In this document: piece after piece, positions 25,947-58,618 of the stretch
Numbering within the stretch: the stretch's first letter is position 1
Layout of the letters: each line of letters begins with the position of its first letter
NCBI GenBank assembly: GCA_902801025.1
Contig: CADCGZ010000001.1
Span: 11,091 to 75,090, forward strand
Reading direction: 5' to 3'
DNA length: 64,000 nucleotides
Source: an uncultured bacterium
GTDB lineage: Bacteria > Verrucomicrobiota > Kiritimatiellia > RFP12 > UBA1067
Made by a program: the position numbers and the translations under genes
Notes under the pieces: model-generated
What the model was told of the DNA's origin: nothing
The model's input: the letters and a program-made list of their open reading frames with translations, nothing else
Databases searched by the model: none

Positions 25947-25950
25947 AATC

Positions 25951-26000
25951 GACCCTAAAGGACTCTAAAAGACTCTAAAAGACACTAATTGACCCTACTG
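25951..26000. repeat. 5 x 10-bp phased tandem words GACNCTAANN in the ackA-pta spacer
   Basis: GACCCTAAAG GACTCTAAAA GACTCTAAAA GACACTAATT GACCCTACTG. The same word family occurs inside kdsD, inside uvrA and in the hairpin after the secretin gene. Confidence 0.9.
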
Positions 26001-26002
26001 CT

Positions 26003-27040
26003 ATGAACGCAATCAAGAACATCATTGAAAAGGCCTCGAAGCTGAACGGAACGGTCGTTCTCCCCGAGGGCATGGACCCCCGCGTCATAACCGCCGCGTG
26101 CGCTTGCGTCGACCGCAAGATCGCGACGCCCGTCGTTCTCGGCACTCCCGCGGAAATCGCCGACGCAGAGGCGAAGGCCGGTCTCAAGCTCGCAGACCGC
26201 GGCATCAAGACGATTGACTATACGCAAGGCGACGCGGAACTCGAAGCCGCGTATCTCGAAGCGTGGAACGCAAAGGAGTCGAAGAAGCCGGCCGAGAAGC
26301 AGAAGATCATTGACCTCGCCGCAGCGCAGAAGACGCTCCGCACGAAGCGCATATACTTCGGCGGCATGATGGTTAAGCTTGGTCGCGTCAACGGTCTTGT
26401 CGCGGGTTCGATCGCCTCGACTGGCGACATGCTTCGCGCGGCGTTCCACACGCTTGGCACGCAGAAGGGCGTCAAGACGGCGTCGAGCTGCTTCATCCTC
26501 GACCTCAAGACCCCGACGGCGTCGGGCGACGAAGTGCTCGCGTTCGGCGACTGCGCGGTTATTCCCGATCCGACGGCCGAACAGCTCGTCGACATCGGCC
26601 TTGCTACGGCGCAGACCTACCGCGACCTCACCGGCAAGGAGCCGCGCGTCGCGTACCTCTCGTTCTCCACAAAGGGCTCCGCGGCGGGTCCGCTCGTCGA
26701 GAAGGTCCAGAAGGCCGTCGAGCTCGCAAAGCCCCGCTTCGAGGAAGCCGGCATCAAGATGGATGGCGAGCTGCAGTTCGATGCGGCGATCGTCCCTGCG
26801 ACCGGCAAGCAGAAGAACCCGAACGGCGCCGTGCAGGGCGACGCGAACGTCTTCATTTTCCCTGACCTCAACGCAGGCAACATCGGCTACAAGATCGCGC
26901 AGAGAATCGGTGGCGCCGACGCCATCGGGCCGAACCTCCAGGGACTCGCCAAGGCGATGAACGACCTCTCGCGCGGCTGCTCCGCCGAGGACATCGTTGG
27001 AACCATCTGTGTAACGCTGCTTCAGTCGACGACAAAGTGA
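26003..27040 (+). CDS. pta: phosphate acetyltransferase (short form)
   Basis: 345 aa. VVLPEGMDPRVI, the DCAVIPDP region and FIFPDLNAGNIGYKIAQR are typical Pta/PTA_PTB motifs. Located next to ackA. Confidence 0.95.
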   Translation: MNAIKNIIEKASKLNGTVVLPEGMDPRVITAACACVDRKIATPVVLGTPAEIADAEAKAGLKLADRGIKTIDYTQGDAELEAAYLEAWNAKESKKPAEKQKIIDLAAAQKTLRTKRIYFGGMMVKLGRVNGLVAGSIASTGDMLRAAFHTLGTQKGVKTASSCFILDLKTPTASGDEVLAFGDCAVIPDPTAEQLVDIGLATAQTYRDLTGKEPRVAYLSFSTKGSAAGPLVEKVQKAVELAKPRFEEAGIKMDGELQFDAAIVPATGKQKNPNGAVQGDANVFIFPDLNAGNIGYKIAQRIGGADAIGPNLQGLAKAMNDLSRGCSAEDIVGTICVTLLQSTTK

Positions 27041-28143
27041 CAGACAACAAGATGATCGAGCGCGCGAAGCAAGTCTTCGCAGTTGAGATCGAGGGTCTCG
27101 AGAAGACCCGCGACTCTCTCGGTGCATCTTTTGTCAAGGCGGTCCGGCTCATTCTCGACACTGTCGCGGACGGCGGCATTGTCGTCGTCTCCGGCGTCGG
27201 CAAGAACCTCCACATCGCCGAGAAGATGAGCGCCATCTTCTCTTCGACTGGCACGCGTTCGATCGTCCTCAATCCCGTGCAGGCGATGCATGGCGACCTC
27301 GGCATGGTCTCCGCGAAGGACGTCCTTATCGCGCTTAGCTTCTCCGGCGAGTCGGCCGAGGTCAACAACTTGATTCCCGCGATCCGCCGTCACGGGCTCA
27401 AGGTCATTTCGATGACTGGCCGCCCCGACTCGACGCTTGCGCAGATGAGCGATATCCACATCGAGATTCCGTGCGGCAAGGAGGCGTGTCCGTTCGGCAT
27501 GGCGCCGACGAACTCGACGACGGCGACGATGGCGATGGGCGATGCGCTCGCGATGGTGATGATCGACGCGCAGAAGTTCCCTGTCGAGGACTACGCGATG
27601 AACCATCCGGCGGGCGCGATTGGCAGGGCGCTTGTCATGAAGGTGACGGATGTCATGCGCTCGGGCGAGCGGCTTGCGAAGGTCGGCCCCGAGGCGACCG
27701 TTCTCGATGCGCTGATGGCGATGACGAAGGCGCAGGGCGGCAGTGCCATTGTCGTGGACGCGAGCGGCAAGCTGCTCGGCATCTTCACCGACGGTGACTT
27801 CCGCCGCATCATGAGCGAGAGGGGCAAGTTTGGGTCAAATAGCGTCGGTGTAGAGTCTGGTAGTGTCGGCAAGACCCTGAGCGACTCTAATTCGCCCCTA
27901 AGCGACGCTAAAGGACCCTATTCGACCCTAAGCGACGCTAAAGGACCCTATTCGACCCTAAACGACCCTATCTCCCTCTACATGACCAAGTCTCCGCTCT
28001 TCGTCTACGACGACGCGTATGCTGCGGAGCTCCTCAAGATCTTCGAGAGAAAGCGCATCGACGACCTGCCGGTGTGCGACAAGTCTGGCCGGGTGGTCGG
28101 ACTCGTGGACATCCAAGACCTGCCAAAGATGAAAGTATTGTGA
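27037..28143 (+). CDS. kdsD: KpsF/GutQ-family arabinose-5-phosphate isomerase (SIS + CBS pair) carrying a ~50-codon repeat-derived insertion
   Basis: SIS motifs VVVSGVGKNLHIAEKMSAIFSSTG and ALSFSGES, followed by a CBS pair. GTG 27037 overlaps the pta stop (GTGA); an alternative ATG lies at 27052. The protein is ~40-50 aa longer than typical KdsD, and the excess maps to 27828-27978. Confidence 0.9.
   Translation: MTDNKMIERAKQVFAVEIEGLEKTRDSLGASFVKAVRLILDTVADGGIVVVSGVGKNLHIAEKMSAIFSSTGTRSIVLNPVQAMHGDLGMVSAKDVLIALSFSGESAEVNNLIPAIRRHGLKVISMTGRPDSTLAQMSDIHIEIPCGKEACPFGMAPTNSTTATMAMGDALAMVMIDAQKFPVEDYAMNHPAGAIGRALVMKVTDVMRSGERLAKVGPEATVLDALMAMTKAQGGSAIVVDASGKLLGIFTDGDFRRIMSERGKFGSNSVGVESGSVGKTLSDSNSPLSDAKGPYSTLSDAKGPYSTLNDPISLYMTKSPLFVYDDAYAAELLKIFERKRIDDLPVCDKSGRVVGLVDIQDLPKMKVL
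27828..27978 (+). repeat. in-frame foldback word array inside kdsD: ~4 inverted words (nTAGnGTC) then ~11 forward 10-bp words (GACnCTAn), including a perfect 30-bp x2 duplication (27901-27960)
   Basis: Read directly from the sequence. It encodes KFGSNSVGVESGSVGKTLSDSNSPLSDAKGPYSTLSDAKGPYSTLNDPISL between the two CBS motifs. Confidence 0.9.
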
Positions 28144-29065: not shown

Positions 29066-29118
29066 GGGGTAACGGGGAACGGGAACCGGGTAACGGGGAA
29101 CGGGGAACGGGTAACGGG
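29066..29118 (+). repeat. array of 8 G-tracts (GGGGTAAC/GGGGAAC/GGGTAAC, ~7-bp period): canonical G-quadruplex motif on the + strand
   Basis: G3-4 runs start at 29066, 29074, 29081, 29088, 29095, 29102, 29109 and 29116, separated by 3-4 nt. Located between the stop at 29064 and the pilM ATG at 29133. Confidence 0.85.
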
Positions 29119-29132
29119 AACGGAAACTTTCT

Positions 29133-32939: not shown

Positions 32940-35900
32940 ATGCAAAACATTAGGAGCATGTTCGATATGACGAACCTCAGGACATACGTCGCGCTGACGG
33001 CGACCATCGCTTTCATCGCGCTCGGCCAGAGCATGAACGCGCAGGACGATCTTGACGATCTGCTTGCCGACCTCGAAGGCGAGGCCCCCGCAGCGACACC
33101 AGCCGCGCCTGCACCAGCCGCCGAGGAACCGGCACCGGCGCCCGCAGCTGAAGAGCCTGCGCCAGCGGCCGAGGAACCGGCACCGGCGCCCGCAGCTGAA
33201 GAGCCTGCTGCCGAGGAGCCCGCACCGGCGCCAGCCGCCGAGGAGCCCGCGCCTGCTGCCGAAGAACCGGCACCAGCACCTGCGGCTGAAGAGCCCGCTG
33301 CTGAGGAGCCCGCACCTGCTGCTGAGGAGCCGGCGGCCGAGGAGCCTGCACCTGCAGCTGAAGAGCCCGCACCTGCTGCCGAAGAGCCGGCGGCCGAGGA
33401 GCCTGCACCTGCAGCTGAAGAGCCCGCGGCTGAGGAGCCCGCTGCCGAGGAGCCTGCACCCGCGCCAGCGGCTGAAGAGCCCGCTGCCGAGGAGCCCGCG
33501 CCCGCTGCCGAAGAGCCCGCGCCCGCGCCTGTGGCTGAGGAACCTGCTGCCGAGGAGCCTGCAGCTGAGGAACCTAAGGCTGATGACAAGAAGATTGATG
33601 ATACGCTTAGTCTTCTCGACGAACTCGAGGCCGAGGAGCCCGTCGCAACCGATCAGATCGGGGAGGCGGGCGTCTCGCCCGCGCCGGCGGCCAAAGCCGA
33701 CGAACCGCTTCCAGAGCCCGTCGCTGCGACTGAAGCCGTCGAACCGGCTTCTGCTGCCGAGTCGGAAGAATCGGCCGTAAAGCAGCGGCTTCAGAACAGG
33801 AAAGACGGCGGTCTCATCGGCGAGATCCTGACGGTTGAAAAACTGCGTCGCGAGGCGATGGACACCCAGGCGATGCGCGAGATTTCGGAGGCCCGCGCTG
33901 CGATGACCAGTGGCGAGTATGCCGAAGCCGTCCGTCACTATGGCATTGCCGCTAAGCTCCTGAACGACAGTGAGAAGTCCAAGATCTTCAAGGCCGAGTG
34001 CACTGAAGGCATTGCCGAAGGGCTTTACAGGGCCGCGCTCGAGGAAGAGCGCACCGGTCGCCGCGCGCGTGCGATAAAGTACATGGAGAAGGCCGTCGAC
34101 CTTCGCCACCCGAAGGCCCGCCGCCAGCTTGAGGCCTGGCTTTCCACTGTAGACCCCGATGCCCTCAAGACCGATGTCTCCGAGATTTCGCATCGTCGCA
34201 ACGATGCCGACTACAAGGCCCGTCGCGAAATCGAGCGCCGCCACCTGAAGCGCGCCAGTCAGTTGCTTGCCCAGCGCGAGATCGACCGCGCGCTCGACGA
34301 GTGCGAGCTTGTCCTCGTGAAGGACCCCTACAACCAGGAGGCCCTTCGCCTCAGGGACTCCATCGTCCGGAAGAGCGACGTCATTCTCAAGAAGGAGCGC
34401 GAAGTCGCCCGCGAGAAGTGGATAGCCGACGTCGACAAGGCGTGGCGTCCGAACTACGCCACCGACGCCAAGGACCGCGACGACAAGAAGGGTGCCACCA
34501 TAAAGGCCAAGCCCGACCCCAACAACAAGGAGCGCACGATCGAGCAGACGATCATCCAACGCATGAAGGAGATGCGTCTCCCGGCGATTTCGTTCAAGCC
34601 GCCGGCGACGATCATCGACGCGGTCGAGTATTTCCGCGGCGCTTCGAAGGACTTCGACCGTCCCGAGATCCCGCTTGAGCAGCGCGGCTTCAACTTCGTC
34701 CTCAAGACGCCCGAGGCCGTTCGCATGAAAACGGCCGCAGCGGCGGGCGAGGATGCTGATGACTTCTCCGACACTGGTTCCGACGAGGCGGCGGATGCCG
34801 GCGGGCCGCTTGGCGTTCCTGTCATCCCGATGATCACCGCGAGCGACATCACGTTCTACGACGCCCTCAAGCTCGTGTGCGAATCCGTCGAGTACAAGTT
34901 CACCGTGCAGGGTCCGATCGTCATGGTCATGCACAAGGACATGTCGGTCGAGGAACTCGTCACGCGCTCCTTCCCGGTTCTCTCGTCCTTCACCGAGAAG
35001 ATGGAAAGCGCGAAGGGCGACATCACGACGATGCGCTCGAGCAATAGCGGCTTCGGCGGCGCATCGCGCAAGAACGACGACGGCGAGGAAAACGAAGAGC
35101 GCGACTGGAAGGAGTTCTTCTCGCTCCTCGGCGTCAAGTGGCCCGAGGGCAGCTCGATCTTCTACGTGAAGACCGTCGGCCGGCTCTTCGTAAAGAACAC
35201 CCAGGAGAACCTCGCCGAGTTCGAGAACGTCCTCGCCCAGCTCAACCAGCAGGTCACGCTCGTCGAGATCGAGACGAGGTTCATCGAGGTCTGCCAGGAC
35301 GACCTGACCTCTCTCGGTTTCGAATGGATTCTCAACAGCGACTATTCACTTGGCCTCAACAAGCACCTCGGTAGGGCGCTTGGCATTCGTGGCGGCGCGT
35401 TCAGCGGTCTCGGCGGTGAAATTGGCACTGGCAGTTCCTCCACTTCGACTACTGGCGGCGATACGACGACTATCACGACGCAGGCCGGCGGGATTATCAC
35501 TTCCCAGGGTACGGGCACTGCGGTTTCCGGGGGCAGCAGCTCTGGCACTGCGTCTGCTTTGTCGCAAGACGCTTCTTGGGTGCGTAGCTCTGGTGCAAAA
35601 AGGAACATTGGCATCAATTCGGTTGACGGTGAGACTTATGCAAGCGGGCATCGATATCTCTCGGATGTCGGGAATCATATTTCCGGTGAATCGAAGTCGA
35701 CAAATGATCGCTTTATGCGGCTGAATGCCTTCCTTGGCAGTGCCGACCTCTCGATGATCCTGCACATGCTTTCGCAGCGCAGCGACACCGATCTCCTCTC
35801 TGCTCCGAAGGTGCTGACGCGTCCGGGCGAAGAGGCCGTCATGAAGGTCGTGACGGAGTACATCTACCCGACCGACTACGACGTGCAGCTCCAGTCGAGC

Positions 35901-36611
35901 TCTTCCGGCAGTTCGGGCAATTCGGGCGGCAGCCAGTCGGCCATTCTCGCCGTCGTTGAGCCCCAGAGCTTCACGATGCGCGAAGTGGGCGTCATACTCC
36001 AGGTCACCCCGACCCTGACTGACGACGGCAACGTCGTTGACCTCGAGCTCAACACCCAGGTCGTCGACGAGCCGACATGGAAGAACTACGGCATGAGGAT
36101 CCCGTTCACGGGCAATGCCTCGGCCGGCAATCTCACGATCGGAATAGGCGACGGGCCGTTTGCGGAACAGGGCTACACGCCGTCTGCCGCTGTAATGGAG
36201 CGCATTGTCACGCGCTATTGGGAGGCGGTCGCCAACATGTTCGAGAACCTCTCAGGCGGCAACCAGAACATTACCTACTACGATGCACCGATGGAGCAGC
36301 CGTTCTTCCACGTCCGGTCCGTCGATTCGAAGATAAGCGTGTATCCTGGGGCGACGATCGTCATGGGCGGCCTTATCACCGAGGCCCGCAAGGCGATGGA
36401 CGACAAGATTCCGTTCCTTGGCGACATTCCGTTCCTCGGACGCTTCTTCCGCAGCCATTCCGAGCAGACCTCGAAGCGCAACCTCCTCATCTTCGTCACG
36501 ACCCGCATCGTCGACGGACGTGGTCGTGAGATGCACAACGATGGTTTTGAGATCTCCGATCAGTCCGCTGGTGCCGACGCGAAGGAGGCGCCCGAGATGC
36601 CGGCTAATTAA
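32940..36611 (+). CDS. secretin (GspD/PilQ family, Amuc_1098-like) with a long acidic Ala/Pro/Glu N-terminal spacer and TPR-like region
   Basis: 1223 aa. Signal peptide ending SMNA/QDD. C-terminal secretin core: DLLSAPKVLTRPGEEA, VGVILQVTPTLTDDGNV, IVMGGLI, IPFLGDIPFLGRFFRS and NLLIFVTTRIVD. Confidence 0.9.
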   Translation: MQNIRSMFDMTNLRTYVALTATIAFIALGQSMNAQDDLDDLLADLEGEAPAATPAAPAPAAEEPAPAPAAEEPAPAAEEPAPAPAAEEPAAEEPAPAPAAEEPAPAAEEPAPAPAAEEPAAEEPAPAAEEPAAEEPAPAAEEPAPAAEEPAAEEPAPAAEEPAAEEPAAEEPAPAPAAEEPAAEEPAPAAEEPAPAPVAEEPAAEEPAAEEPKADDKKIDDTLSLLDELEAEEPVATDQIGEAGVSPAPAAKADEPLPEPVAATEAVEPASAAESEESAVKQRLQNRKDGGLIGEILTVEKLRREAMDTQAMREISEARAAMTSGEYAEAVRHYGIAAKLLNDSEKSKIFKAECTEGIAEGLYRAALEEERTGRRARAIKYMEKAVDLRHPKARRQLEAWLSTVDPDALKTDVSEISHRRNDADYKARREIERRHLKRASQLLAQREIDRALDECELVLVKDPYNQEALRLRDSIVRKSDVILKKEREVAREKWIADVDKAWRPNYATDAKDRDDKKGATIKAKPDPNNKERTIEQTIIQRMKEMRLPAISFKPPATIIDAVEYFRGASKDFDRPEIPLEQRGFNFVLKTPEAVRMKTAAAAGEDADDFSDTGSDEAADAGGPLGVPVIPMITASDITFYDALKLVCESVEYKFTVQGPIVMVMHKDMSVEELVTRSFPVLSSFTEKMESAKGDITTMRSSNSGFGGASRKNDDGEENEERDWKEFFSLLGVKWPEGSSIFYVKTVGRLFVKNTQENLAEFENVLAQLNQQVTLVEIETRFIEVCQDDLTSLGFEWILNSDYSLGLNKHLGRALGIRGGAFSGLGGEIGTGSSSTSTTGGDTTTITTQAGGIITSQGTGTAVSGGSSSGTASALSQDASWVRSSGAKRNIGINSVDGETYASGHRYLSDVGNHISGESKSTNDRFMRLNAFLGSADLSMILHMLSQRSDTDLLSAPKVLTRPGEEAVMKVVTEYIYPTDYDVQLQSSSSGSSGNSGGSQSAILAVVEPQSFTMREVGVILQVTPTLTDDGNVVDLELNTQVVDEPTWKNYGMRIPFTGNASAGNLTIGIGDGPFAEQGYTPSAAVMERIVTRYWEAVANMFENLSGGNQNITYYDAPMEQPFFHVRSVDSKISVYPGATIVMGGLITEARKAMDDKIPFLGDIPFLGRFFRSHSEQTSKRNLLIFVTTRIVDGRGREMHNDGFEISDQSAGADAKEAPEMPAN
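33075..33575 (+). repeat. coding low-complexity tandem region (AEEPAPAP/AAEEPA units, ~165 aa)
   Basis: Imperfect repeats of GCYGARGARCCNGCNCCNGC-type units read directly from the sequence. The antisense ORF 32858-33589 over this region is an artefact. Confidence 0.9.
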
Positions 36612-36687
36612 GGGTCAGACCCCTCTGACACAGTAGCTGACACAGCTAAAGCTGCGGTCAGCTACTGCAGTCAGAAAGGTCCGACCC
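36612..36687. repeat. long imperfect hairpin/foldback element immediately after the secretin stop (possible terminator)
   Basis: Outer pairing is GGGTCAGACC (36612-36621) with GGTCCGACCC (36678-36687). Inner pairing is CTGACACAGTAGCTGAC (36625-36641) with GTCAGCTACTGCAGTCAG (36657-36674). The outer words belong to the GACCCTAA family (TTAAGGGTC ... GACCCTCTAAAA). No U-tract. Confidence 0.8.
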
Positions 36688-36696
36688 TCTAAAAAC

Positions 36697-37302: not shown

Positions 37303-37328
37303 TTGCGGTATTCAACATGGCGAAGAAG

Positions 37329-37442
37329 TTTTTAACGCAGAGTAGCGGAGTAGCAGAGTAGCAGAGTTGTTTTGGGCCGCGCAAGCGCGGGGTCTGGGGT
37401 GCAACCCCAGCATCAACATCCTCTGCGTCTCTGCGTTAAAAA
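37329..37442. repeat. foldback element / candidate structured RNA between coaE and rho
   Basis: Perfect 14-bp terminal IR: TTTTTAACGCAGAG (37329-37342) and CTCTGCGTTAAAAA (37429-37442). Left arm has 4 x 8-bp CAGAG words (37335-37366). Right arm has 2 x CTCTGCGT (37421-37436). The core is TTTTGGG plus hairpin CCGCGCAAGCGCGG plus hairpin CTGGGGTGCAACCCCAG (37370-37410). Confidence 0.85.
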
Positions 37443-37510
37443 TCAATTCCCCAACTTGAAATTCTACACGATCTACATGTTCTACACGGCTAAAAAAGAT
37501 AGATAAGATT

Positions 37511-39070
37511 ATGGCAGAAGAACTCGATGTGTTTGCGAGCGCCGTCACCAAGAGCGCCGCGCCGAAGCCCCAGCAACCCCAGCCGCCGCAGCAGGGGGGC
37601 AGCGGCAATAATGGCCAGAAAAAGCGGTTCCACAACCGCGGCGGCAAGAACTTTAACCGCGGTGGCGGCAAGCCGAACAACTCCCCGATTCGCGGCGCGA
37701 ACGGCGAGGAGAGCGTAAATCCGCTTCTCAACGCCCCGCTTCCGACGGAACAGCGAGTGCAGGAGGTCGACGCCCCCGCGAACCCGAACCGCAATCCCGA
37801 CCTCCCGGAGTACCGCCTCGCCGACATCCAGACGTGGACTGCGCCGGAGATAGTCGAGCGCATGATGCCCGGCGCCGATCCCGAGGAGCTCGGCACCTAC
37901 CGCAAGCACGAGCTCATCTTCGCCGCTATACGCAGATATCTCGCGAACGGCGGCGCGGTGCTTGCCTCCGGCTGCCTTGAGATCGTCCGCGAAGGGCACG
38001 GCTTCTTGAGGTCCGCGAAGAACAACTTCCTCGCATACCCCGAGGACGTCTTCGTCACGCAGCAGCAGATCCGCCGCCATGCACTCAGGACGGGCGACAT
38101 AGTGGAGGGCCCGATCCGCGATCCGCGCGACCGCGACCGATTCTTCTGCCTCGGCAACGTCGCGACGGTCAACGGCAAGGAGCCGTCCGTCGCCGCCCGC
38201 GTCATACACTTCGAGAACCTGACCGCCACGTTCCCGACGCGGCGCATCATCCTCGAGACCGACCCGAAGGAGTTCTCGACGCGCGTCGTCGACCTCTTCA
38301 CGCCGATCGGCTTCGGACAGCGCGGCCTCATTATCGCGCCGCCGCGCGTCGGCAAGACGGTTCTTCTCCAGAAGATGGCCAATGCGATTTCCAAGAACTA
38401 CCCCGAGGCGATGCTCATCATCCTTCTCATCGACGAGCGCCCCGAGGAAGTCACCGACATGCAGCGCAACACGAAGGCGATGGTGCTTTCGTCTACGTTC
38501 GACGAAGAACCTCAGCACCACGTGAGCGTCACCGAGATGGTCCTCGAGATGTCGAAGCGCCAGGTCGAGAATGGGCGCGACGTGATTATTCTCATGGACT
38601 CGCTGACTCGCATGGCGCGCGCCTACAACACGGTGCAGCCGCATTCCGGCAAGATCCTGACAGGCGGCGTCGACGCGCTCGCGATGCACAGGCCCAAGAG
38701 GTTCTTCGGCGCGGCAAGAAACATCGAGGGCGGCGGCTCGCTCACAATCATTGCAACAGGCCTCGTCGACACGGGTTCCAGGATGGACGAGGTCATTTTC
38801 GAGGAATTCAAGGGCACCGGCAACATGGAAATCGTCCTCGACCGCGGGCTTGCGGACAAGCGCATATACCCGGCGATCGACATCGACAAGTCCGGGACGC
38901 GCAAGGAAGACCTCCTTCTGGATCCGGTCGAACTCGAGAAGACGTGGGGCATGCGCCGCATCCTTTCCGACGCAGGCCCCGAGAGCGCGATGAAGTCGGT
39001 GTTGAACTCGCTCAAGAAGACAAAATCCAATCCAGAGTTCCTGCTTGCCCTCGACCTCAAAAACCTCTAA
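37511..39070 (+). CDS. rho: transcription termination factor Rho with a ~95-aa Gln/Gly/Asn/Arg-rich N-terminal extension
   Basis: 519 aa. GFGFLR-type motif (EGHGFLRS), Walker A (PPRVGKTVLLQ), and the DSLTRMARAYN and IDKSGTRKEDLL motifs are present. The N-terminal extension reads PKPQQPQPPQQGGSGNNGQKKRFHNRGGKNFNRGGGKPNN. Confidence 0.95.
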   Translation: MAEELDVFASAVTKSAAPKPQQPQPPQQGGSGNNGQKKRFHNRGGKNFNRGGGKPNNSPIRGANGEESVNPLLNAPLPTEQRVQEVDAPANPNRNPDLPEYRLADIQTWTAPEIVERMMPGADPEELGTYRKHELIFAAIRRYLANGGAVLASGCLEIVREGHGFLRSAKNNFLAYPEDVFVTQQQIRRHALRTGDIVEGPIRDPRDRDRFFCLGNVATVNGKEPSVAARVIHFENLTATFPTRRIILETDPKEFSTRVVDLFTPIGFGQRGLIIAPPRVGKTVLLQKMANAISKNYPEAMLIILLIDERPEEVTDMQRNTKAMVLSSTFDEEPQHHVSVTEMVLEMSKRQVENGRDVIILMDSLTRMARAYNTVQPHSGKILTGGVDALAMHRPKRFFGAARNIEGGGSLTIIATGLVDTGSRMDEVIFEEFKGTGNMEIVLDRGLADKRIYPAIDIDKSGTRKEDLLLDPVELEKTWGMRRILSDAGPESAMKSVLNSLKKTKSNPEFLLALDLKNL

Positions 39071-39085: not shown

Positions 39086-42000
39086 ATGAAGAAGATCCTT
39101 GCATTGATCGCTTCGGCGTGGACCGCGCTCGCGGTTGGCGCCGCCGTTCAGCTGACAGCGTCAGTCTATGACGACGATACAGGCGGAACCTACACGGGAA
39201 GCGGGGTTTTCGTGGAGGTGACATATTCATGGTGGCAGGGCGAGCGACAGGAGACGGGGGTTGACGATGTATCTGTCACGATAGGCGAATACAACAGCGC
39301 GAGCTACGCTATTGTCCGCGGTTGCATCACGAACGAGAACATCGACCGCGACAAGTGCAAGTGGGAAGTCGTCAGCGACAGTTCCAATCTCGGCTTTGCA
39401 GAGGATGCCAATGGCGCGGACCTTGCGGCTGGATATCTCACCAATCGCGTAGTTGGCGTGCGTGCGGACGGGACCGGAACGTATGGCAAGGCGGCGATAG
39501 TCCTGCATGTCGCGCGGCGGCACTGCACGTTGACGTACAACGCAAACGGCGGCAATGCCTCCGGACTGCCTGGCGCCGTCGAGATTGTCAGCGGCGTATC
39601 GACGCGGCTTACATCTGTGGTTCCTACGCGTTCTGGCTATGCGTTTGGGGGATGGTCGAAGTCCGCTACCAGCATTTCGGCAATGTACAGCCCTGGGGCT
39701 TCGGCGACGTTCTCGGAAGACACGACGCTTTATGCAGTTTGGGTCGCCAACGACTACTCGGTTGCCTTCAACGCCAATGGCGGCACGGGTACAATGGCTA
39801 CGCAGGCGATGACCTATGGGACGCCTACAAGTCTTTCCATCAACGCGTTCACGCGGCCTGGATATGCGTTTGCAGGGTGGTCGTTGACGGCAGACGGCGA
39901 GGTCGCATACACCGACGGGGCCGCAGTTACCGGAATCGCGACTGGTTTAGGCGAGACAGTCATGCTCTATGCCGTCTGGACCCCCGAGGAATATCTGCTG
40001 ACGGTAGATCCAAATGGCGGCGTCTATAAAGGGAGTTCGGAGACAACGGCCTTGTCGCCATCGATCAAGTATGACACGAAGCTGTGGAACAACATTGGCG
40101 CAGCGACTCGGACCGGCTATGCGCTCAGGGGATATTACGCCGACCGCGAAGGCGAGACGCGCGTATACGATGAAAAGGGCAAGAATGTCGCTGCTGGCGG
40201 CTATTGGTCTGCGGCGTATTCGAATGGCGTCTGGAGATGTCTGGGCGACCTGAAGGTCTATGCGCTGTGGTTGCCTGTCGTCTACAAGGTTTCCTTCAAC
40301 GCCAATGGTGGCAATGGCACGATGCCGGCGCAGCAGCTGACTTATGACGCGAAAACCGCGCTGACTTTGAATGCCTTTACCCGCACGGGGTTTGCTTTCG
40401 CCGGCTGGGCGCAGTCCGCCGATGCGGACAAGGCGAGCTACGCCGATGGTGCGGAAGTCCTGAACCTGGCCGACACTGCCAATGCGACTGTCGCGCTCTA
40501 TGCCGTCTGGGAGGCGAGTCGCTACTATGTCGCCTTTGCCGCGAACGGCGGCAAGGGAACGATGAACGCGCAGAACGCGACTTATGGAGTCGAGACCGAC
40601 CTTGAAACAAACGCATTTACAAGGGTGGGGTATGCATTCGGTGGCTGGGCAAAGACGCCAGGCGGGGCCGCTGTCTATGCTGACGGAGCGTCCGTTTCAA
40701 ATCTGACGGACGTCGCCGACGCTACCAACACTCTATATGCCGTGTGGAAGGCCAATGACTATTCCGTCGCCTTTTACGCGAACGGCGGCACGGGGAAGAT
40801 GGATCCGCAGAATGCGACTTACGGGAAGGCGCTCGTCCTTGAGCCCAATACCTTCAGCCGGACGGGTTACGAGTTTGGTGGATGGAAGGCGACGGACGGG
40901 TCGATATACGTAGACGGCGCGACCGTCTCTAACTTGACGACGATCGCCGGCGCCGCAGCTCCGCTCTATGCAGTCTGGACTCCAAAATCGTACGACCTTT
41001 CGTTTGATGCTGACGGCGGCACAGGCGAACTCGCCCCCCGTACGGTTTCCTACGACTCCGCGTATGGCGATTTGCCGACGCCGACTCGTCCTGGCTACGA
41101 TTTCGTCGGATGGTTTGACGAGTCCGGCAAGGAGGTTACGAAGGATACGCGTGCAAAGTCGACGAGCGCAGGGACATTGAAGGCCCGCTGGGCATCGATC
41201 GCCTACAACGTAGTCTTCGACGCGAATGGCGGTGAGGGGTGGAAGGAACCGTTCGAGGCAATCTGCCGCTACGACGAGACGCTCACGCTGCCGGACGAGA
41301 CCTTCGTGCGCGCGGGCTATACATTAGACGGATGGGATTGCGGCGGAACCAATTATGTCTGCGGCGCCATCGTGTCCAACCTGACGACGGCGGCAGGCGG
41401 CCGCGTCACATTTGCCGCGCAATGGAAGCCGGTTGTCTACAATGTCGTCTTCGACGGAAACGGCGGAACATGTGAAACCAATTCGGCTTCGTCCGTCACG
41501 AATGTAGTGACATACGGCGAGGAGCTTGAAGTGCCGGCGTTTGTCCGCCTCGGCCGCGTTCTCAACGGATGGAATTGCGCGGACGCAGCCTATCCTACCA
41601 ACGCCGTAGTGTCCAACTTGACGGCGACGGCTGGCGGGACAGTGAAGATGAGGGCCAATTGGAATCTTGGCCCCAACGATTTGTCGGAGGCGCTGGATAT
41701 TGACAACCTTGTGTTTGAGAACGACGGCGGAGCGTGGACTGTCCGAGATGATGCCGCCGCCGTGAGCGGCACATGCATCGCCGTGACGGGAGACGGCGTA
41801 ACGAATGAAGTCGCCCTTGCGACGGAGACAGACAGTGGCGGTACGATTAGCTTCTGCTGGAAGTTTGCCAGCGTAGATTCCACATCGGCAGCGTTTGGGT
41901 TTAGACTTTACGATTCTACGGAGGGCAAGACCCTCTGGTCTACAAACTATTCTCGGGACACGGCTTCGACAAGTCCGTTTTACGCGGATTATTCGCCTCA

Positions 42001-44572
42001 TTGGGAGCCGTTTTCCACCAACATTGTTGCGGATGGCATTCATAAGCTTCAATGGGAAATAACGGAATCGCATTCCGGCACCGACGACGAAGGCATAATG
42101 CTTGACCATGTGACATGGGAGCCTGCGGGTGGTGCAGCCGGCATTGCCGCAGTGGAAATCCCCGTTGCGGTCCCCGGTCTTGTCTACGACGGCACTAAAA
42201 AGATCGGCGTTGACGAGAATGCGGCCTATACGCTTGTCGGTAATGTCGCGACAAACGCGGACGGATATCTCGCGACTGCGACGCTGAACAACAAGGCCGC
42301 AAGCGTCTGGGCAGACGGCACGACGGACGACAGGGAGATCCCGTGGCGAATCGCTACCAAGGTCATAGATCTTAGCGGCGTTGCGTTTGCGGATGCATCG
42401 TGGAAGTTCGACGGCAAATCCAAGAGTATCAATGCCTCCGGCGTGCCCGCTGGTGTAGAGGTGACCTACGATGGCAATAATCGAACAGAGGTTGGCGAAT
42501 ACACGGTGACAGCGTGGTTCAAGAGCACTTCCACTGGAAATCTGCTGACGAACATGACGGCTACGCTCACGATAGAGGCGCTGAGCGTCGGCGAGCCATC
42601 AGCCGTTGCGGGACTCGTCTACGACGGCACGGCGAAGACTGGCGTTGTCGAAAGTGTCGGTTACACGCTTGCCGAGAACGTTGCGACGGCCGCAGGCGAT
42701 TATGTCGCGACGGCAACGCTTGACGCCGGATATGTCTGGTCCGACAACACGACTGGACCGAAGGAGATTTCGTGGTCGATTGCGCGCGCTACATACGACA
42801 TGGGCGACGTGTTGTTTGAAGACGGGACGTTTGAGTTCGACGGCACGAATCTGTATCTTGCCGTGGAGGGAGATCTTCCCGATGGCGTTGACGTCTACTA
42901 CCTGTACAACGGGAAGTCCGGCGTCGGCTCTTATACGGTCATTGCCAGGTTCACGGCATCCGATGCCGTCAACTACGAGCCGATTCCAGATCTTGCGGCC
43001 ACGCTGACTATCGTGCTCCCTCCGACGAAGATTGAGGTGCCGACGGCCGTGTCGGGGCTTGTCTACGACGGTGCGGCGCAGATCGGCGTCCTTGAAGGCG
43101 TTGGATACGCCCTTGCCGGGAACGTCGAGACGAACGCGGGCTCGCATGCCGCTACCGCGACGCTGGAGGACGGGTATGTCTGGGCTGACGGCACGACGGT
43201 TGCGCAGACAATCCACTGGTCTATTGCCAAGGCAACATACGACATGAGCGGGGTGTCGTTCGCGAGCAAGACGTTTGAGGCCGATGGCACGAAAAAATCT
43301 ATTGCCATTACGGGAACGCTTCCTTCTGGCGTGAAGGTGTCTTATGTTGGCAACGGCCAGACCGAGCCCGGGACATACACGGTGACGGCGAAATTCACGG
43401 GTGACGCGAACAACTACAATTCGATTTCAGATAAAAAGGCCACACTGACCATAACGAAGAAGTCTGATCCTGTCCCGCCAGGCCCAGGCCCTGGGCCAGA
43501 ACCCGATCCTGATCCAGTGGACGAGACGCCCGATCTGTATCCGAGCGGAGTCGCGGTGCTTGGCGCATTCACGGCCGAGAAGGCAGAGACCTACAACGGC
43601 TGGCTTAAGGATGATGCCGAGCGAGTCGTCGCATTGCTGACAGTGAAGACGACAGCGGCAAAATCTGGCAAGCAGACTAAGTCGACGATCACAGTGACGC
43701 CTGTCAATGGAAAGAAGTACACAAAGAAAACGTCTTTCGATCCAGGGGGGAATCCGACCGACGAATTTGGCATCGTCTACGGCTCGCGTGGGCTCCTTGG
43801 CACATTTGGCGGTTATTCCGTCGAGGCCGGTGTAGATGTCTACAAATCCAAGATTTCCGAGGTAAAGGCCCTTGCTGCGAATATTCCAGTTGCGACGCAT
43901 ACGTTCTCCGTCGACACTGGGAACGGCATGGCGGTGTTCTCGGCCGTGATTGCCAAGACTGGCAAGACGAAAGTCCAGGGATATCTTGAAGACGGCGCAA
44001 AGATATCGGTCTACACTACCGGTGCGCTTGGGGAAGAATACTTTGCCGTCCCTGTCGTTTCGCCAAAAGCGGCGACGCGGTGTGGGTTTGTCCTCTGGTT
44101 CCCCCTTGACGGCGGTTCGCCGACACTCGCAAACTTCTACGATTCGAACTGGACGGCTTCGCTGTCTGGTGGATCATACGCCCTGGCCAACGGTGAGCAT
44201 GTCTTTGACTTCGAGGAGCCGGACTTCCGCAATTATCTCGCTTCAGTCGACGGCTTTGCCGTTGCGCCCGTTGGAGCCGTGTTTACCGTTAAGCGCGGCA
44301 AATGGGACGCCGGCAAGACGGTCGGCCGTCTCAAGGTTATCGATGGCGCACCGGCTGTCACCGGAACTTCGTCGCCGTCGAATCTGTCCGCGCTTAAGCT
44401 GACGTATACTGCGAAGTCGGGGCTTGTGAAGGGCTCGTTCAAGCTGTACTATATGGATGGCAAGCGGCTTAAGAATGACACTGTGACGGTTACGGGCGTT
44501 GTTGTCGACGGCAAGCTATTCGGAAGTGGCACAATCAAGAAGCTCGGCTCCTTTGCCGTAACGGCGGAATGA
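39086..44572 (+). CDS. large surface protein (1828 aa): ~10 Listeria-Bacteroides (InlB B / Flg_new) repeats, then YDG-containing MBG-like repeat pairs, a Pro-rich linker and a C-terminal domain
   Basis: GGAGG RBS at 39075-39079. Signal peptide [19 protein letters not shown]. Repeats of the type [24 protein letters not shown]...LYAVW. Repeated VxGLVYDGTxKxGV...ATLTI units. Linker [19 protein letters not shown]. Confidence 0.9.
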
Positions 44573-47481
44573 GCGACATCAGCATACACAACGCCAAGGT
44601 CCACAACCTCAAGGGGATAGACGTCACGATTCCCCGTGACTCGCTTACGGTCGTGACGGGGCTTTCGGGGAGCGGCAAGTCGTCGCTCGCGTTCGACACG
44701 CTCTATGCGGAAGGCCAGCGTCGCTACGTCGAGTCGCTTTCCGCGTATGCGCGGCAGTTCCTCGACAGGATGCAGAAGCCGGACGTAGAAAAGATAGAAG
44801 GGCTCTCGCCTGCGATCTCCATCGAGCAGCGAACGACGAGCGGCAACCCGCGCTCGATTGTCGCGACCGTCACCGAGATACACGACTACCTGCGAATCCT
44901 CTACGGCGCGATTGCGGTTGCGCACTGTCCGCACTGCGGCAAGCCGGTCACTAAGCAGTCGGCGGAGCAGATTGTGGAGGCGATTCTCGGGGAATGGGGA
45001 ACGGGAAACGGGGAACGGGCAGGTGGCGCAAAAATTATCATCTACGCCCCTCTCGTGAAGGGCAAGAAGGGGCGGCACGAAGAGCCGCTTGCCGCCGTCA
45101 AGCGCAACGGCTTTGCGCGCGTCAAGATCGACGGCACGATATATCCCGTCGACGAGCTTCCCGCGCTCGACAAGAAAAAGGCGCACACCATTGACGTCGT
45201 GGTTGACCGCCTCGTGATTCCGGCGGCGCCCGACGCAGCGTTCAAGACGCGCCTCACCGATTCCGTCGAACTTGCTCTCAAGACCGGCAAGGGCATAATG
45301 GAGGTGGAGAGATTGGGGAACGGGGAACGGGATATATACTCAGAACTCAACGCGTGTCCCGATTGCGGTATTTCCTTTGACGAGCTGAAGGCGCGGTCGT
45401 TCTCGTTCAACTCGCCCTTTGGTGCATGTCCGACATGCGCGGGGCTTGGGCAGCTCTACTACTTCGACGAAGATCTCGTCGTGCCCGACAAGTCGCTTCC
45501 GCTCGAGGAGGCGATACACCCGTGGCGTCGCATGGGGCAGATGAACATCCTCTATCACAAGGAGCTTCTTTCGCAAATCGCAAAGCAGAACAAGGTGAAG
45601 CTCTCGACTCCCTACGAGAAGCTGCCGGCGAAGTTCCGACACGGGCTTATGCACGGCTTCAAGGAAGACCTCGTTCTTCCGTGGCGGCGCGTCGACCGTC
45701 CGTTCGAGGGAGTCCTCGCGTCGCTTCAGCGGCGGCTCGACGAGGCGGAGGACGACGAGATGCGTGCGAAGTTCGAGGCATACCAGAGCTTCCGTACCTG
45801 CCCCGACTGCGGCGGTTCGCGGCTTAGGCCCGAGTCGCGCGCGGCGACTGTCGCCGGGAAGTCGATAGTAGAGGTAATGGCGATGCCGGTCACCGAGGCG
45901 CTCGAGTTTTTCAGCGCCATTCAAGATTATGCAAATGGCGTAGTGTCTGATAGAGGTGCGACCCTAACCGACTCTAATCGCCTCCACGGCCTCAAGGACA
46001 TCATCGCGGAGATCGTGCGGCGGCTCCAGTTCCTTCTCGACGTTGGACTAGACTATCTGACGCTCGACCGCGCCGCGTCAACTCTCTCCGGCGGCGAAAT
46101 GCAGCGCATCCGCCTCGCGACGCAAATCGGCTCTGGGCTCACGGGAGTTCTTTATGTGCTCGACGAGCCGACAATCGGCCTCCACCCGCGCGACAACGAG
46201 CGGCTTATCTCTACCCTAAAGGGGCTCCGCGACCGCGGCAACACCGTCGTCGTCGTAGAGCACGACGAAGAGATGATGAGGAACGCCGACTACATCGTCG
46301 ACCTTGGTCCCGGCGCGGGGCGTGAAGGCGGGAAGGTGATGTACCAGGGCGACTTCAAGGGGCTCCTAAAGTCTAAGTCGCTCACCGCCGACTACCTCAC
46401 GGGGAGGAAGAGGGTGGTGACGGCCGACGACCGGCAGCCGACAGTCGCAAGTCGAAAGTCGAACGGATTGTCGGGTGACGGTTGCCGACTGTCGAAAAAC
46501 TCCGCCTACCTCACCATCTCCGGCTGCACCGAGCACAACCTCAAGAACATCACCGCCCGCTTCCCCGTAGGCGCGTTCACCGTGGTGACAGGCGTCTCTG
46601 GCTCCGGCAAGTCGACGCTCGTCGACGAAACGCTAAAGAGGGCGCTTCTCCAGAAGTTCTACCACGCGAAGGCCGTCCCCGGCAAGTTCAAGAAGCTCAC
46701 TGGCTTCGAGAACTTCGACAAGATTGTGGAGATCGACCAATCGCCTATCGGCCGCACTCCGCGCTCGAACCCGGCGACGTACGTCGGCTTCTTCTCCGAG
46801 ATACGCGAGCTTTTCGCGAAGACAGAGTCGGCGCGCGCGCGCGGCTACACTGCGGGGCGCTTCTCGTTCAATGTGAAGGGCGGAAGGTGCGAGACGTGCG
46901 GCGGCGATGGCCTCCAGAAGCTCGAGATGAGCTTCCTCCCCGATGTCTACGTCACATGCGACCAGTGCGGCGGCAAGCGCTTCAACGCCGAGACTCTTGA
47001 AGTCACCTACGGCGGCAAGAACATCGCCGATGTCCTCGAGATGACGGTCGCCGAGGGGTGCGAGTTCTTCGCGAAGGTGCCGTCCCTCGCCCGCAAGCTC
47101 CAGACGCTTGTCGACGTCGGGCTTGGCTATGTCGCTCTCGGGCAGTCCGCGACGACGCTCTCAGGCGGCGAGGCACAGCGCATCAAGCTCGCGACGGAAC
47201 TTTCACGCCGCTCGACGGGCCGCACACTCTATCTTCTCGACGAACCGACGACGGGGCTCCACTTCGACGACGTGGCGAAGCTGATGAAGCTTCTCCTGCG
47301 GCTCCGCGACCAGGGGAACACGATCATCGTCATTGAGCACAACGTAGACGTGATGAGGTGCGCCGACTGGATCGTCGATCTCGGGCCCGGCGGGGGCGAT
47401 GCGGGCGGCGAGCTTGTCTGCGAAGGGCCGATTTCGGCCATTAAGGCATGCAAATCTTCCATCACTGGGCGCTTTTTGTAA
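44569..47481 (+). CDS. uvrA: excinuclease ABC subunit A
   Basis: 970 aa. [58 protein letters not shown] and [12 protein letters not shown] are present. The ATG overlaps the upstream stop (ATGA, 44569-44572). Confidence 0.96.
45938..45985 (+). repeat. in-frame copy of the GACCCTAA-family foldback element inside uvrA
   Basis: GTAGTGTCTGATAGAGGTGCGACCCTAACCGACTCTAATCGCCTCC aligns with kdsD 27850-27898 (GTAGAGTCTGGTAGTGTCGGCAAGACCCTGAGCGACTCTAATTCGCCCC). It encodes ..[18 protein letters not shown].. in a segment that I recall as longer than in E. coli UvrA. Confidence 0.8.
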
Positions 47482-47567: not shown

Positions 47568-47591
47568 GCTCTGCGGCTCTGCGCCTCTGCG
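47568..47591 (+). repeat. 3 x 8-bp CTCTGCGN tandem words in the recA leader
   Basis: CTCTGCGG CTCTGCGC CTCTGCGT then TAAG. This matches the right arm of the 37329-37442 element. No complementary left arm is present. Confidence 0.85.
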
Positions 47592-47608: not shown

Positions 47609-48637
47609 ATGGCAACGAAAGAAACAGTGAAGAAGTCCGGCAACACCGCGCTTGACGCGGTGATGAGCCAGATCCGCAAGGAATTCGGCGAGATGGCGAT
47701 TATGCGTCTCGGCGACCAGGAAGTGAAGTCCATCCCCGTGATCTCCACGGGCGCCCTCTCCTTGGACATGGCGCTTGGCGTCGGCGGGCTCCCGCGCGGG
47801 CGCATCGTCGAGTGCTACGGCCAGGAGTCATCGGGCAAGACGACGCTCGCCCTGCATGTCGTCGCGAACGCCCAGAAGGCGGGCGGCGTCGCGGCGTTCA
47901 TCGACGCGGAGCACGCGCTTGACCCCGGCTATGCGAAGCAGATCGGCGTCGATCTCGACAACTTGATCGTCTCCCAGCCGAACAGCGGAGAGGAAGCGCT
48001 TACGATTTGCGAGCAGCTCGCGAAGTCGGGCGCCCTCGACGTGATCGTGGTCGACTCGGTCGCGGCGCTCGTTCCGCAGGCCGAGATCGACGGCAACATG
48101 GGCGACAGCCACATGGGGCTTCAGGCGCGCCTCATGTCGCAGGCGATGAGAAAGCTCACGGCCGTCGTCGCGCAGACGAAGACGCTCATCATCTTCACGA
48201 ACCAGGTGCGCGAAAAGATCGGCGTGATGTTCGGCAATCCCGAAACGACGCCCGGCGGCAAGGCGCTCAAGTTCTACGCGAGCTGCCGCCTCCAGGTGCA
48301 GAGGATCGGCGCGATCAAGAATCCCGCCGGGCAGGTCGTCGGCAACAGGACGCGCGTCAAGGTCGTGAAGAACAAGGTCGCTCCGCCTTTCACCGAGGCC
48401 GAGTTCGACATCCTCTACACTTGCGGCATCTCCTACGAGGGCTCGGTCCTCGACGCGGCGCTTGCGCGCGGAGTCGTCGAGAAGCGCGGCAGCTGGCTTT
48501 CCTTCGGCGACGAGCAGCTTGCGCAGGGAGCGCTTGCGACGATCGAGTACTTGAAGGCGAATCCCGACGTGACGGCGAAGATCGTCGGGCTCGTGAAGTC
48601 CACGCCGGTCAATCCTGCGTTGGCTAAGAGGAAGTAA
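47609..48637 (+). CDS. recA: recombinase RecA
   Basis: 342 aa. Walker [13 protein letters not shown]; [18 protein letters not shown] and [22 protein letters not shown] are present. Confidence 0.97.
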
Positions 48638-58037: not shown

Positions 58038-58440
58038 TTGACATCGTTGGAGGTTCCCCAGTTTTTCGGGCATGAAAACGGCCACACCCCTGTAAACAAA
58101 GGGTGAAGTGGTGATTTTCATTTCGCGATAAGTGAAAACTCCTTTCCCGATTTTCTAAGCAACTCCGAGCGTTTGGGCTCCCGCTACCGCTCCGCAGCTT
58201 CGCGTCCCTCAACGACTGAATATGTGCAGGGTTAAGCGTTTGGGGATGCGACTGCGTCGCATAAATCGGCCGAGGGCCGCTATAAACACTATGAAAGGAG
58301 TCACTTGATCGTGGTTGAAAAGCGCGAAGCAGTGAAGCGGTAGCGGGAACCCTAACCATCGGAGTTTCTGAAATTCCGCGCGGGGTGTCGGAAAGGGGCG
58401 GCAGTACCTGCGAAAATTGGGGAACCTCCAATTGACATCG
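58038..58440. mobile_element. non-autonomous transposable element (MITE, 385 bp) with 19-bp terminal inverted repeats and a perfect 9-bp target-site duplication
   Basis: TSD TTGACATCG at 58038-58046 and 58432-58440. Left TIR TTGGAGGTTCCCCAGTTTT (58047-58065). The reverse complement of the right TIR (58413-58431) is TTGGAGGTTCCCCAATTTT, an 18/19 match. No transposase ORF lies inside. Confidence 0.75.
58161..58366. repeat. long-stem hairpin element, copy B (206 bp), nested inside the MITE
   Basis: Arms are ~90% identical to copy A (AACTCCGAGCGTTTGGGCTCCCGCTACCGCTCCGCAGCTTCGCG ... CGCGAAGCAGTGAAGCGGTAGCGGGAACCCTAACCATCGGAGTT). The interior holds TTTGGGG plus hairpins ATGCGACTGCGTCGCAT and CGGCCGAGGGCCG (58239-58279). 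Confidence 0.9.
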
Positions 58441-58481: not shown

Positions 58482-58570
<89 letters not shown>

Positions 58571-58593: not shown

Positions 58594-58618
58594 GCGCAGA
58601 GGCGCAGAGAGCATAGAG
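58594..58618 (+). repeat. GCGCAGAG x2 plus a degenerate third unit directly upstream of rnc (CAGAG-orientation half element)
   Basis: GCGCAGAG GCGCAGAG AGCATAGAG. This is the reverse-complement orientation of the CTCTGCG array upstream of recA. Confidence 0.8.

Follow-up and report, generated by a model that had tools for sequence, protein, structure and literature searches.

The uvrA linker segment and an insert in kdsD

The subject of this analysis is a short in-frame segment of the uvrA gene in a 64,000-nt stretch of contig CADCGZ010000001.1 (assembly GCA_902801025.1) from an uncultured bacterium of the class Kiritimatiellia. This whole stretch is called the window; all coordinates are those of the window unless a locus is named, and L- and P-numbers denote comparison loci and comparison proteins, respectively. 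The uvrA gene (44569..47481, plus strand) is a 970-aa entry of the open reading frame (ORF) list with the Pfam domains UvrA_inter, UvrA_DNA-bind, and ABC_tran. Inside it, a 46-mer at 45940-45985 that is present as a single copy in the window is read as 18 residues in the uvrA frame. The segment consists of a left arm relic (45941..45957), in which TAGTGTC (45941-47) and a degenerate TAGAGGT (45951-57) lie 10 nt apart, and a right arm (45960..45977), in which GACCCTAA (45960-67) and GACTCTAA (45970-77) have the same 10-nt distance. It is thus a copy with 2+2 words, of which only one left word is exact. A small 7-bp inverted repeat, CGCCATT...AATGGCG (45915..45940), lies at the left edge of the surrounding cassette according to the DNA fold and allele comparison; it encodes AIQ, residues common to all alleles of the window's family (referred to as type A).

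The uvrA segment alone is too short and too degenerate for a repeat search to find anything, and its relation to a repeat family is visible only through word analysis and orthologous alleles. The z-score of its hairpin, folded as single-stranded DNA, is -1.7. Scanning the window with Rfam at the gathering threshold and with a tRNA search yielded three tRNAs only, none of which overlaps any array.

The word GACYCTAA occurs 10 times in the 64-kb window versus 1.7 expected, a count that was reached by 0/100 shuffles. All occurrences are on the plus strand, and 8/10 fall into three clusters: 25951-25978 (intergenic), 27883-27961 (kdsD), and 45960-45977 (uvrA). When 45938-45985 is aligned locally with the kdsD insert (27830-27975), the result is a single collinear block that takes in 45940-45983 of the uvrA segment, with 37/47 identities and a score of 31; the uvrA row reads GTAGTGTCTGATAGAG-GTGC--GACCCTAACCGACTCTAA-TCGCC and the kdsD row GTAGAGTCTGGTAGTGTCGGCAAGACCCTGAGCGACTCTAATTCGCC. 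Dinucleotide shuffles score 13.7±2.4 (maximum, 26), with 0/2000 at 31 or above, and all other 48-nt windows of the 64 kb, taken on both strands, score 13.5±2.2 (maximum, 24; 0/5291). Chance similarity is excluded by these statistics. The collinearity with kdsD that the original prediction had claimed, on the proviso that the similarity exceed shuffled controls, therefore holds. The two segments are DNA-level homologues that belong to one dispersed repeat family.

In all likelihood, the uvrA segment is a contracted, partly worn copy of a DNA-level palindromic repeat family of rumen and gut Kiritimatiellae that has been dispersed into both genes and intergenic DNA. The segment itself is a small, decayed passenger, and its interest lies in the system that it reveals.

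A family of two-armed word arrays

The family was delineated by a scan for three phased words in which each prokaryotic species was represented by a single genome. Three-word matches are concentrated in metagenome-assembled genomes (MAGs) of rumen and gut Kiritimatiellae: SRR873601_bin.89 has about 28 loci, and at least six others have several each. The other MAGs with matches include RGIG2266, RUG12612, RUG10640, RUG14463, RUI187, and JAZSLQ01. The window has three copies.

A full member has the form (TAGNGTC+3-4 nt)k, a short non-conserved center, and (GACNCTA+3-4 nt)m, where the words are commonly TAGGGTC and GACCCTA. Wherever both orientations are present, left words precede right words, the only irregularity being a stray leading word in 1 of about 48 clusters. 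Arm lengths are independent and unequal (e.g., 5+32, 12+9, and 7+4 words), and the arms sometimes abut directly. Elements range from about 40 to 375 nt and from 2 to more than 30 words, with no conserved center, and full members fold as long hairpins in single-stranded DNA (z=-12.7 for L040 and z=-7.9 for L084). Dozens of unrelated loci have the 7-nt word, its spacing, the arm order, and even spacer motifs in common, and the number of words at one locus differs among close relatives, from 2+2 to 4+12 in uvrA and from 0 to about 10 per arm in kdsD. The arrays behave as a variable-number tandem repeat (minisatellite). They are unlikely to be assembly artefacts, because the same alleles are found in independent ENA, NCBI, and JGI assemblies.

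Arrays inside genes keep the reading frame open

Among the Kiritimatiellae loci, 20/48 arrays (about 40%) lie inside ORFs of at least 250 aa, and most of these genic arrays have Pfam domains on both sides. Their hosts include IspH, a MiaB-like protein, MnmE, threonine synthase (ThrC), a B12-binding protein, PriA, an RluA-like pseudouridine synthase, HisD, MutL, QueA, SNF2 helicases, a glycosyltransferase, UvrA, and KdsD; the PriA array occupies the same site in three genomes.

Genic arrays are always read in the same two frames, whichever strand the gene is on, and the left arm encodes LGSDRVG-like and the right arm TLKDPN-like peptides. The reading is the same on either gene strand because the element is palindromic, and the third frame is closed by the TAG in the left word and the TAA after the right word. 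Only stop-free versions of the array were found in genes. Spacings of 11 nt account for 38/105 in genes versus 16/263 elsewhere; a 10-nt and an 11-nt spacing add up to 21 nt, a 7-aa unit that keeps the reading frame. Since the avoidance of stops would be pointless in an untranslated segment, these constraints imply that the genic copies are translated as extra loop residues.

The uvrA linker is a hot spot

A protein search provided 120 UvrA orthologues (78-100% identity, 945-1098 aa), of which the named ones are from Kiritimatiellae. Differences in length are limited to four in-frame spots (aa ~140-154, 249-252, 449-470, and 615-646), and outside them UvrA is almost invariant among the orthologues. 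The segment described here belongs to the third spot, a variable linker cassette at 45913..45987 (plus strand) that was delimited by a DNA alignment of the window with L001 and by the linkers of five genomes. This cassette of about 75 nt stands where L001, a 95%-identical orthologue with about 90% identity to the window at the DNA level, has an "empty" linker of about 41 nt, AGGAGTTTGCCTCTACCGCCGCACCATCCGCCAAGCTTGCC.

Orthologues that are 84-95% identical have an empty site, 4+12 words, or unrelated repeat families. The empty protein allele reads EFFKEFASTAAPSAKLAGLKD, for example in P0007 at 95% identity, and type-A alleles extend from a 25-residue form up to RRIQAVSVGKIGSNRVELRSGKVNALTAPNPPLNDSNSTLTDPNPPLTAPNPTLNDPNSTLIDSNRLR. 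At least three allele types unrelated to type A occupy the same site: AGASRPSLV..RGRVGDASLP, HSPTPT.DSNSTLQLHSPTP, and AMGQPAGSA..SDSNPQTLKPSNPS. The extra peptide thus ranges from 0 to about 60 residues. Because unrelated repeat families are found at this site in sister lineages, it is a hot spot rather than the place of a single event, and the linker between the EALEFF helix and the helix of the following 12-residue motif is a permissive spot.

Type-A boundaries are constant among the orthologues (IQ... on the left and ...DSNRL[HR] on the right), and the word counts between them differ. In P0054 and L002, three to four intact left words lie at the site of the window's left-arm relic. The long allele of L002 comprises 4 left and 12 right words, and the boundary at its end, GACTCTAACCGCCTCC, is that of the window; therefore, the window's allele is a contraction of such an array. 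A neighbor-joining tree of conserved UvrA columns places type A, with the same boundaries each time, in three clades and mixed with empty alleles; we take this to reflect an old cassette passed on by allelic exchange, not three separate insertions.

The original prediction also described this segment as shorter in the UvrA of E. coli, and it would have yielded to a distant UvrA sharing the peptide. The solved UvrA structures 2r6f, 3ux8, and 9gxk align on both sides of the site and lack 14 residues exactly within a 21-residue segment, in agreement with that description; these distant UvrAs do not have the inserted peptide. An AlphaFold2 model of the window's UvrA, built with 25 close orthologues, was too poor to judge surface exposure (mean predicted local distance difference test score [pLDDT], 42; predicted template modeling score, 0.24) and only hints that residues 456-475 are a coil between two helices.

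The fourth spot (46412-46505; aa 615-646) contains an imperfect palindrome in the window, CCGACAGTCG...CGACTGTCG, that is read as 26 residues. At least six unrelated sequences are found there among the orthologues, and in SRR873601_bin.89 (L010) the spot is occupied by a TAGGGTC/GACCCTA array.

Sites in kdsD and between ackA and pta

The larger family copy of the window lies in frame in kdsD (27037..28143), at 27832..27978, and has 3 left words followed by about 10 right words. The kdsD product is an SIS+CBS protein. The right arm has a period of 10 nt, equivalent to a 30-nt, 10-aa unit, and keeps this pure period through GACCCTAT (Pro-Tyr) in the dangerous frame; the hairpin is weak (z=-2.6). 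Close KdsD orthologues (324-410 aa, 77-99% identical) change in length at one site only, between the CBS domains. No words are present in the commonest allele, RRIVSTSADSNKLLASPVGDVMT (L188), each arm of the type-A alleles has between a few and about 10, and in L073 a different palindromic word family (GTTCGAG.../...CTCCAAC) is present with exactly the same boundaries. The DSN of the empty KdsD allele (SADSNKLL) was considered as a seed word and rejected, as it is encoded by gattcgaac and not by GACTCTAAC.

The third copy is one-armed and non-coding. It lies between the ackA stop and the pta start (25947..26002, plus strand) with five right words at a period of 10 nt, and it does not fold into a hairpin. 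This junction is empty in L023, where the stop and start codons overlap as ATGA; it has 4-5 right words in the window, L073, and L187, and a different palindromic family, with CAGAGAC words and TTAA ends, in L188. The kdsD and ackA|pta sites are landing pads common to several repeat families.

A four-helix-bundle gene flanked by arrays

A 255-aa gene lies between the two largest arrays in both RGIG2266, the closest named genome, and RUG12612. It is located at L005 4293-5060 (minus strand), on the same contig as the RGIG2266 uvrA, and at L008 6134-6928 (minus strand), where it is likewise flanked on both sides. The protein (255-260 aa) combines a four-helix bundle (TIGR02436; TIGR04258 "suffix" domain; PF05635-like) with a C-terminal CxxC...CxxC ribbon. 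Its AlphaFold2 model (pLDDT, 82.7) was compared with the PDB by Foldseek, which matched the bundle only to the uncharacterized four-helix bundles 2gsc and 2rld (TM score of about 0.75 on the target) and gave no functional clue; a PADLOC scan of the protein had no match. The window contains no intact copy of this gene.

Every homologue that could be placed in context (62-100% identity; L005, L008, L096-L102, L107, L108, and L189/190) has the same layout: left arm, promoter-like TTGATATAAT in the center of the upstream array, right arm, gene, left arm, right arm. The stop codon of the gene is the TAG of the first downstream word. Contigs with the gene are mostly below 2 kb in length, which would be expected if arrays cause assemblies to break. 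Diverse metagenomes supplied 80 loci of the wider family (including L110-L186), which were searched for arrays with Tandem Repeats Finder (TRF; period 8-11, within 350 nt). Arrays were found upstream in 32/75 and downstream in 35/68 cases, compared with 0.031 per 350 nt farther away in the same loci (about 15-fold enrichment). Their words are lineage specific, including GACCYTAAA-type 9-mers, CCAATAAGA, AAGGCACCG, GGCTTAGAAA, TACTCAGAG, and TGGGAATTA. TIGR04258-family copies in type I restriction-modification operons have no arrays.

These observations raise the possibility of a gene-repeat partnership, in which TIGR04258 proteins across several phyla would bind or propagate the words that flank their own genes, at the DNA or RNA level, either regulating themselves or spreading the arrays; the uvrA and kdsD copies would then be stray arrays that escaped from this system, as REPINs relate to RAYT. 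We consider this a tentative proposal. It is favored by the presence of large arrays around the gene in every Kiritimatiellae locus examined, by the promoter-like sequence and the shared stop codon, by the enrichment in the wider family with words that differ by lineage, and by the matches of the modeled bundle. We know of no nucleic-acid-binding or enzymatic activity in the TIGR04258 family, which counts against it, as do the array-free homologues in restriction-modification operons, the lack of an array by TRF in about half of the metagenome loci, and the PADLOC result; moreover, the conserved neighborhood may partly be inherited synteny. A further point in its favor is that PF05635 has been described as resembling Avd, the accessory protein of diversity-generating retroelements (DGRs) (PMC10053308). 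Our literature search found no description of the Kiritimatiellae repeats or of an association of arrays with TIGR04258/PF05635.

Two side observations touch this gene and its words. In L189/L190, the gene is interrupted by a long-stem element of about 290 nt (gggctcccgctaccgct.../...agcggtagcgggaaccc; L189 1085-1375), and the same element stands alone in the window at 58130-58440, upstream of tRNA-Leu (58482-58570), with no Rfam match. Scanning viral contigs with the word pattern gave 17 matches, which have no four-helix-bundle gene nearby and were treated as unrelated to the family. Seven of these IMG/VR contigs (L192, L194, L196, L197, L200, L204, and L206) share one cluster of GACNCTA/TAGNGTC-like words with 11-nt spacing, which could be an iteron or origin region and is probably unrelated to the Kiritimatiellae arrays.

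Dispersal of the family and alternative explanations

The history of the dispersed family can be outlined as follows. The number of words per arm would change quickly, probably by slippage or by unequal recombination between tandem words, and whole alleles appear to pass between related strains by homologous recombination. Selection would remove copies that bear stops, leaving genic arrays that alternate 10- and 11-nt spacings or use a CTAT variant. Different repeat families would have occupied the uvrA linker in different lineages, with the window's allele shrinking to 2+2 words. Slippage or unequal exchange fits the allele series but does not explain the origin of new loci; for their seeding, the four-helix-bundle gene with its zinc ribbon is the best lead, as its product may bind or propagate the words.

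Several points weigh against the view that the uvrA segment is a copy of a dispersed repeat. No insertion event was directly seen. The uvrA cassette replaces sequence relative to L001 instead of simply being added to it, and the copy has one exact left word and almost no hairpin. Because the type-A alleles of three UvrA clades share their boundaries, the patchy distribution may reflect one old event followed by recombination, not repeated mobility. Across 20 two-armed arrays there was no signal of target-site duplication (mean best direct repeat, 1.60 versus 1.72 for the null; p=0.73), and no transposase or reverse transcriptase adjoins the arrays in about 60 Kiritimatiellae loci that were read, array neighborhoods only. 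The evidence for translation of the genic copies is the constraint on frame and stops, not protein data, and the link between TIGR04258 and the arrays is an association, not a mechanism. Flank complementarity at the arrays is weak (p=0.036). The original prediction had argued for mobility rather than protein-level evolution. The dispersal of the family and its presence or absence across loci uphold the first half of that argument, and only to that extent; the uvrA cassette is not a clean insertion, and no target-site duplication or transposase was found at the arrays covered.

After the gene-repeat partnership, the alternative that survives best is a non-autonomous transposon resembling a MITE (miniature inverted-repeat transposable element) and moved by a transposase encoded elsewhere, the arrays being multi-site terminal inverted repeats like the ends of Tn7 or Mu. 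The arrays have inverted arms, and their copies are dispersed. At ackA|pta there is a clean pair of filled and empty sites, the 56-nt insert being bordered by TGAA at either end, and the other family at this junction (L188) ends in TTAA...TTAA; however, the TGAA repeat is ambiguous through the stop and start constraints of the junction. A classical MITE is disfavored because there is no duplication signal across the 20 arrays, no fixed length or center (arms may even abut), and no transposase adjoining any array in the roughly 60 loci read. One-armed copies also speak against it, and we regard this explanation as unlikely.

According to another scenario, the arrays are scars of break repair. 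After a double-strand break, both 3' ends would be extended with tandem G-rich words (TAGGGTC...) by a templated polymerase or a reverse transcriptase and then rejoined. This would yield exactly an array of words followed by its reverse complement, and it would account for the constant arm order in essentially all two-armed arrays, the independent arm lengths, the absence of a conserved center and of target-site duplication, and the replacement of the original bases at uvrA. The flanking gene, moreover, has an Avd-like fold, and the partner of Avd in DGRs is a reverse transcriptase. Yet the scenario is purely inferential, with no polymerase identified, any palindromic founder predicts the same arm order, and one-armed arrays need a separate account. 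It is improbable.

Still less probable is protein-level adaptation, in which the linker residues were selected for UvrA function and the similarity of the DNA is a by-product of a peptide motif. The segment is in frame and lies between conserved helices, as this would require, but non-coding DNA contains the words as well, the site is empty or filled by unrelated sequence in sister lineages, and the peptide varies in length as described above while the rest of UvrA is nearly invariant. Growth in situ from chance seeds by slippage, with a convergent similarity between uvrA and kdsD, fits the whole-word differences among near-identical orthologues but is strongly disfavored and the least credible of all, given the repetition of word, spacing, arm order, and spacer motifs at dozens of unrelated loci, the alignment statistics, and the empty alleles of uvrA (L001) and kdsD (L188), which contain no intact GACNCTA or TAGNGTC and a single relaxed match, GCCTCTA, in L001.

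Relation to known repeat systems

Rickettsia palindromic elements (RPEs) are a kind of dispersed palindromic repeat that frequently stands in frame in housekeeping and metabolic genes (PMC10969869). As with the arrays described here, the peptide that an RPE adds does not destroy the protein, and RPEs have no known transposase (PMC10969869). The arrays share the hallmarks of RPEs as a functional class: they are multi-copy and dispersed, they form hairpins (full members), and they stand in frame without stops in unrelated genes. On the other hand, RPEs measure about 100-150 bp and have a full-length consensus for each family, whereas the arrays are modular, with 10/11-nt units, two inverted arms, and variable word numbers. 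Also unlike RPEs, the arrays share sites with other families and adjoin a non-transposase gene, and their hosts are free-living gut Kiritimatiellae from another phylum. Their range of about 40-375 nt does not fit the fixed length of the RPE families proper, from which they are set apart by length and architecture. The RPE can nevertheless be regarded as the closest analogue in behavior.

REPs and REPINs are short, many-copy hairpin repeats with a single-copy gene (RAYT, an IS200/IS605-type tyrosine transposase) that is flanked by the repeats; REPs are mostly extragenic, with a GTAG head and a single stem. The arrays are likewise short hairpin repeats that flank one gene, but that gene belongs to TIGR04258/TIGR02436 and not to a transposase family, its four-helix-bundle and zinc-ribbon product has no known catalytic motif, and many of the arrays are genic. 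The MIRU minisatellites of mycobacteria and the STRR and SDR repeats of cyanobacteria are tandem arrays of short units that vary in copy number among strains and occur at gene junctions, including overlapping stop and start codons. Such junction sites resemble ackA|pta, and the cyanobacterial heptamer arrays resemble the GGGGAAC arrays of the window (see below). To our knowledge, these minisatellites do not have two inverted arms, have not been reported as frequent in-frame insertions in housekeeping genes, and do not flank a gene.

PARCEL elements are intragenic tandem repeats with dyad symmetry at the DNA level, so that either strand encodes a similar peptide (PMC2996958). However, PARCEL is a 25-residue amphipathic domain of surface and accessory proteins that spreads by horizontal gene transfer, whereas the arrays consist of 10-nt words in loops of core enzymes and in intergenic DNA. 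On defining features, the arrays fall outside the RPE, MITE, and REP/RAYT families.

Other repeat families and length polymorphisms in the window

Tandem heptamers of the GGGGAAC/GGGTAAC family occupy the first hot spot of uvrA (44988..45019, plus strand; read as 10 residues) and the second (45315-45331; LGNGER), and they also occur in intergenic DNA just upstream of pilM (29067-29127), where their copy number produces a 27-nt difference from L001 at 29089-29115. A third family, with the 8-nt words GCAGAGTA / CTCTGCGT, inverted arms, and TTAAC...GTTAA ends, is found at 37330-37440, 47568-47591, and 58594-58609. Its hairpin at 37325-37445 has a z-score of -7.3, and short arrays of its words lie just upstream of recA and rnc; the CAGAGAC element at ackA|pta in L188 is related to it. 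The intergenic DNA that separates the secretin gene from coaE contains a palindromic insert of 79 nt (36615-36693; TCTGACACAGTAGCTGACACAGC...GCTGCGGTCAGCTACTGCAGTCAGA) that is missing in L001 (91% identical).

Neighboring genes differ in length among relatives as well: Rho has 402-551 aa (37511-39070), RecA 342 or 363 aa (47609-48637), and the secretin 1182-1223 aa (32940-36611), the secretin gene containing a PAAEE-type low-complexity tract at 33073-33594. Such variation in neighboring housekeeping genes suggests that in-frame repeats are a phenomenon of the whole genome. On a larger scale, an 1828-aa ORF between rho and uvrA (39086-44572) has no counterpart in L001, L003, and L004, in which rho and uvrA are directly adjacent; one is present in L002 (1819 aa, with Flg_new repeats), making this a 5.5-kb presence/absence polymorphism.

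Implications

The classic example of selfish or mutational repeats absorbed into core proteins as translated loops comes from Rickettsia, and the arrays provide a second, independent, and much more dynamic case. They are hosted by an abundant lineage of uncultured gut and rumen bacteria that offers a natural allele series, with 0 to about 60 extra residues, in UvrA, KdsD, PriA, MutL, and other proteins. The array sites are ready maps of permissive insertion points in essential enzymes and hypervariable strain markers, and the arrays are also places where metagenome assemblies break. The flanking of TIGR04258 genes by arrays offers a testable function for a widespread, uncharacterized family related to DGR Avd and may show how short repeats are made and spread. 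If the partnership is true, it would represent a REP-RAYT-like relation without a known transposase, from which, in rumen Kiritimatiellae, escaped arrays have colonized dozens of housekeeping genes in frame.

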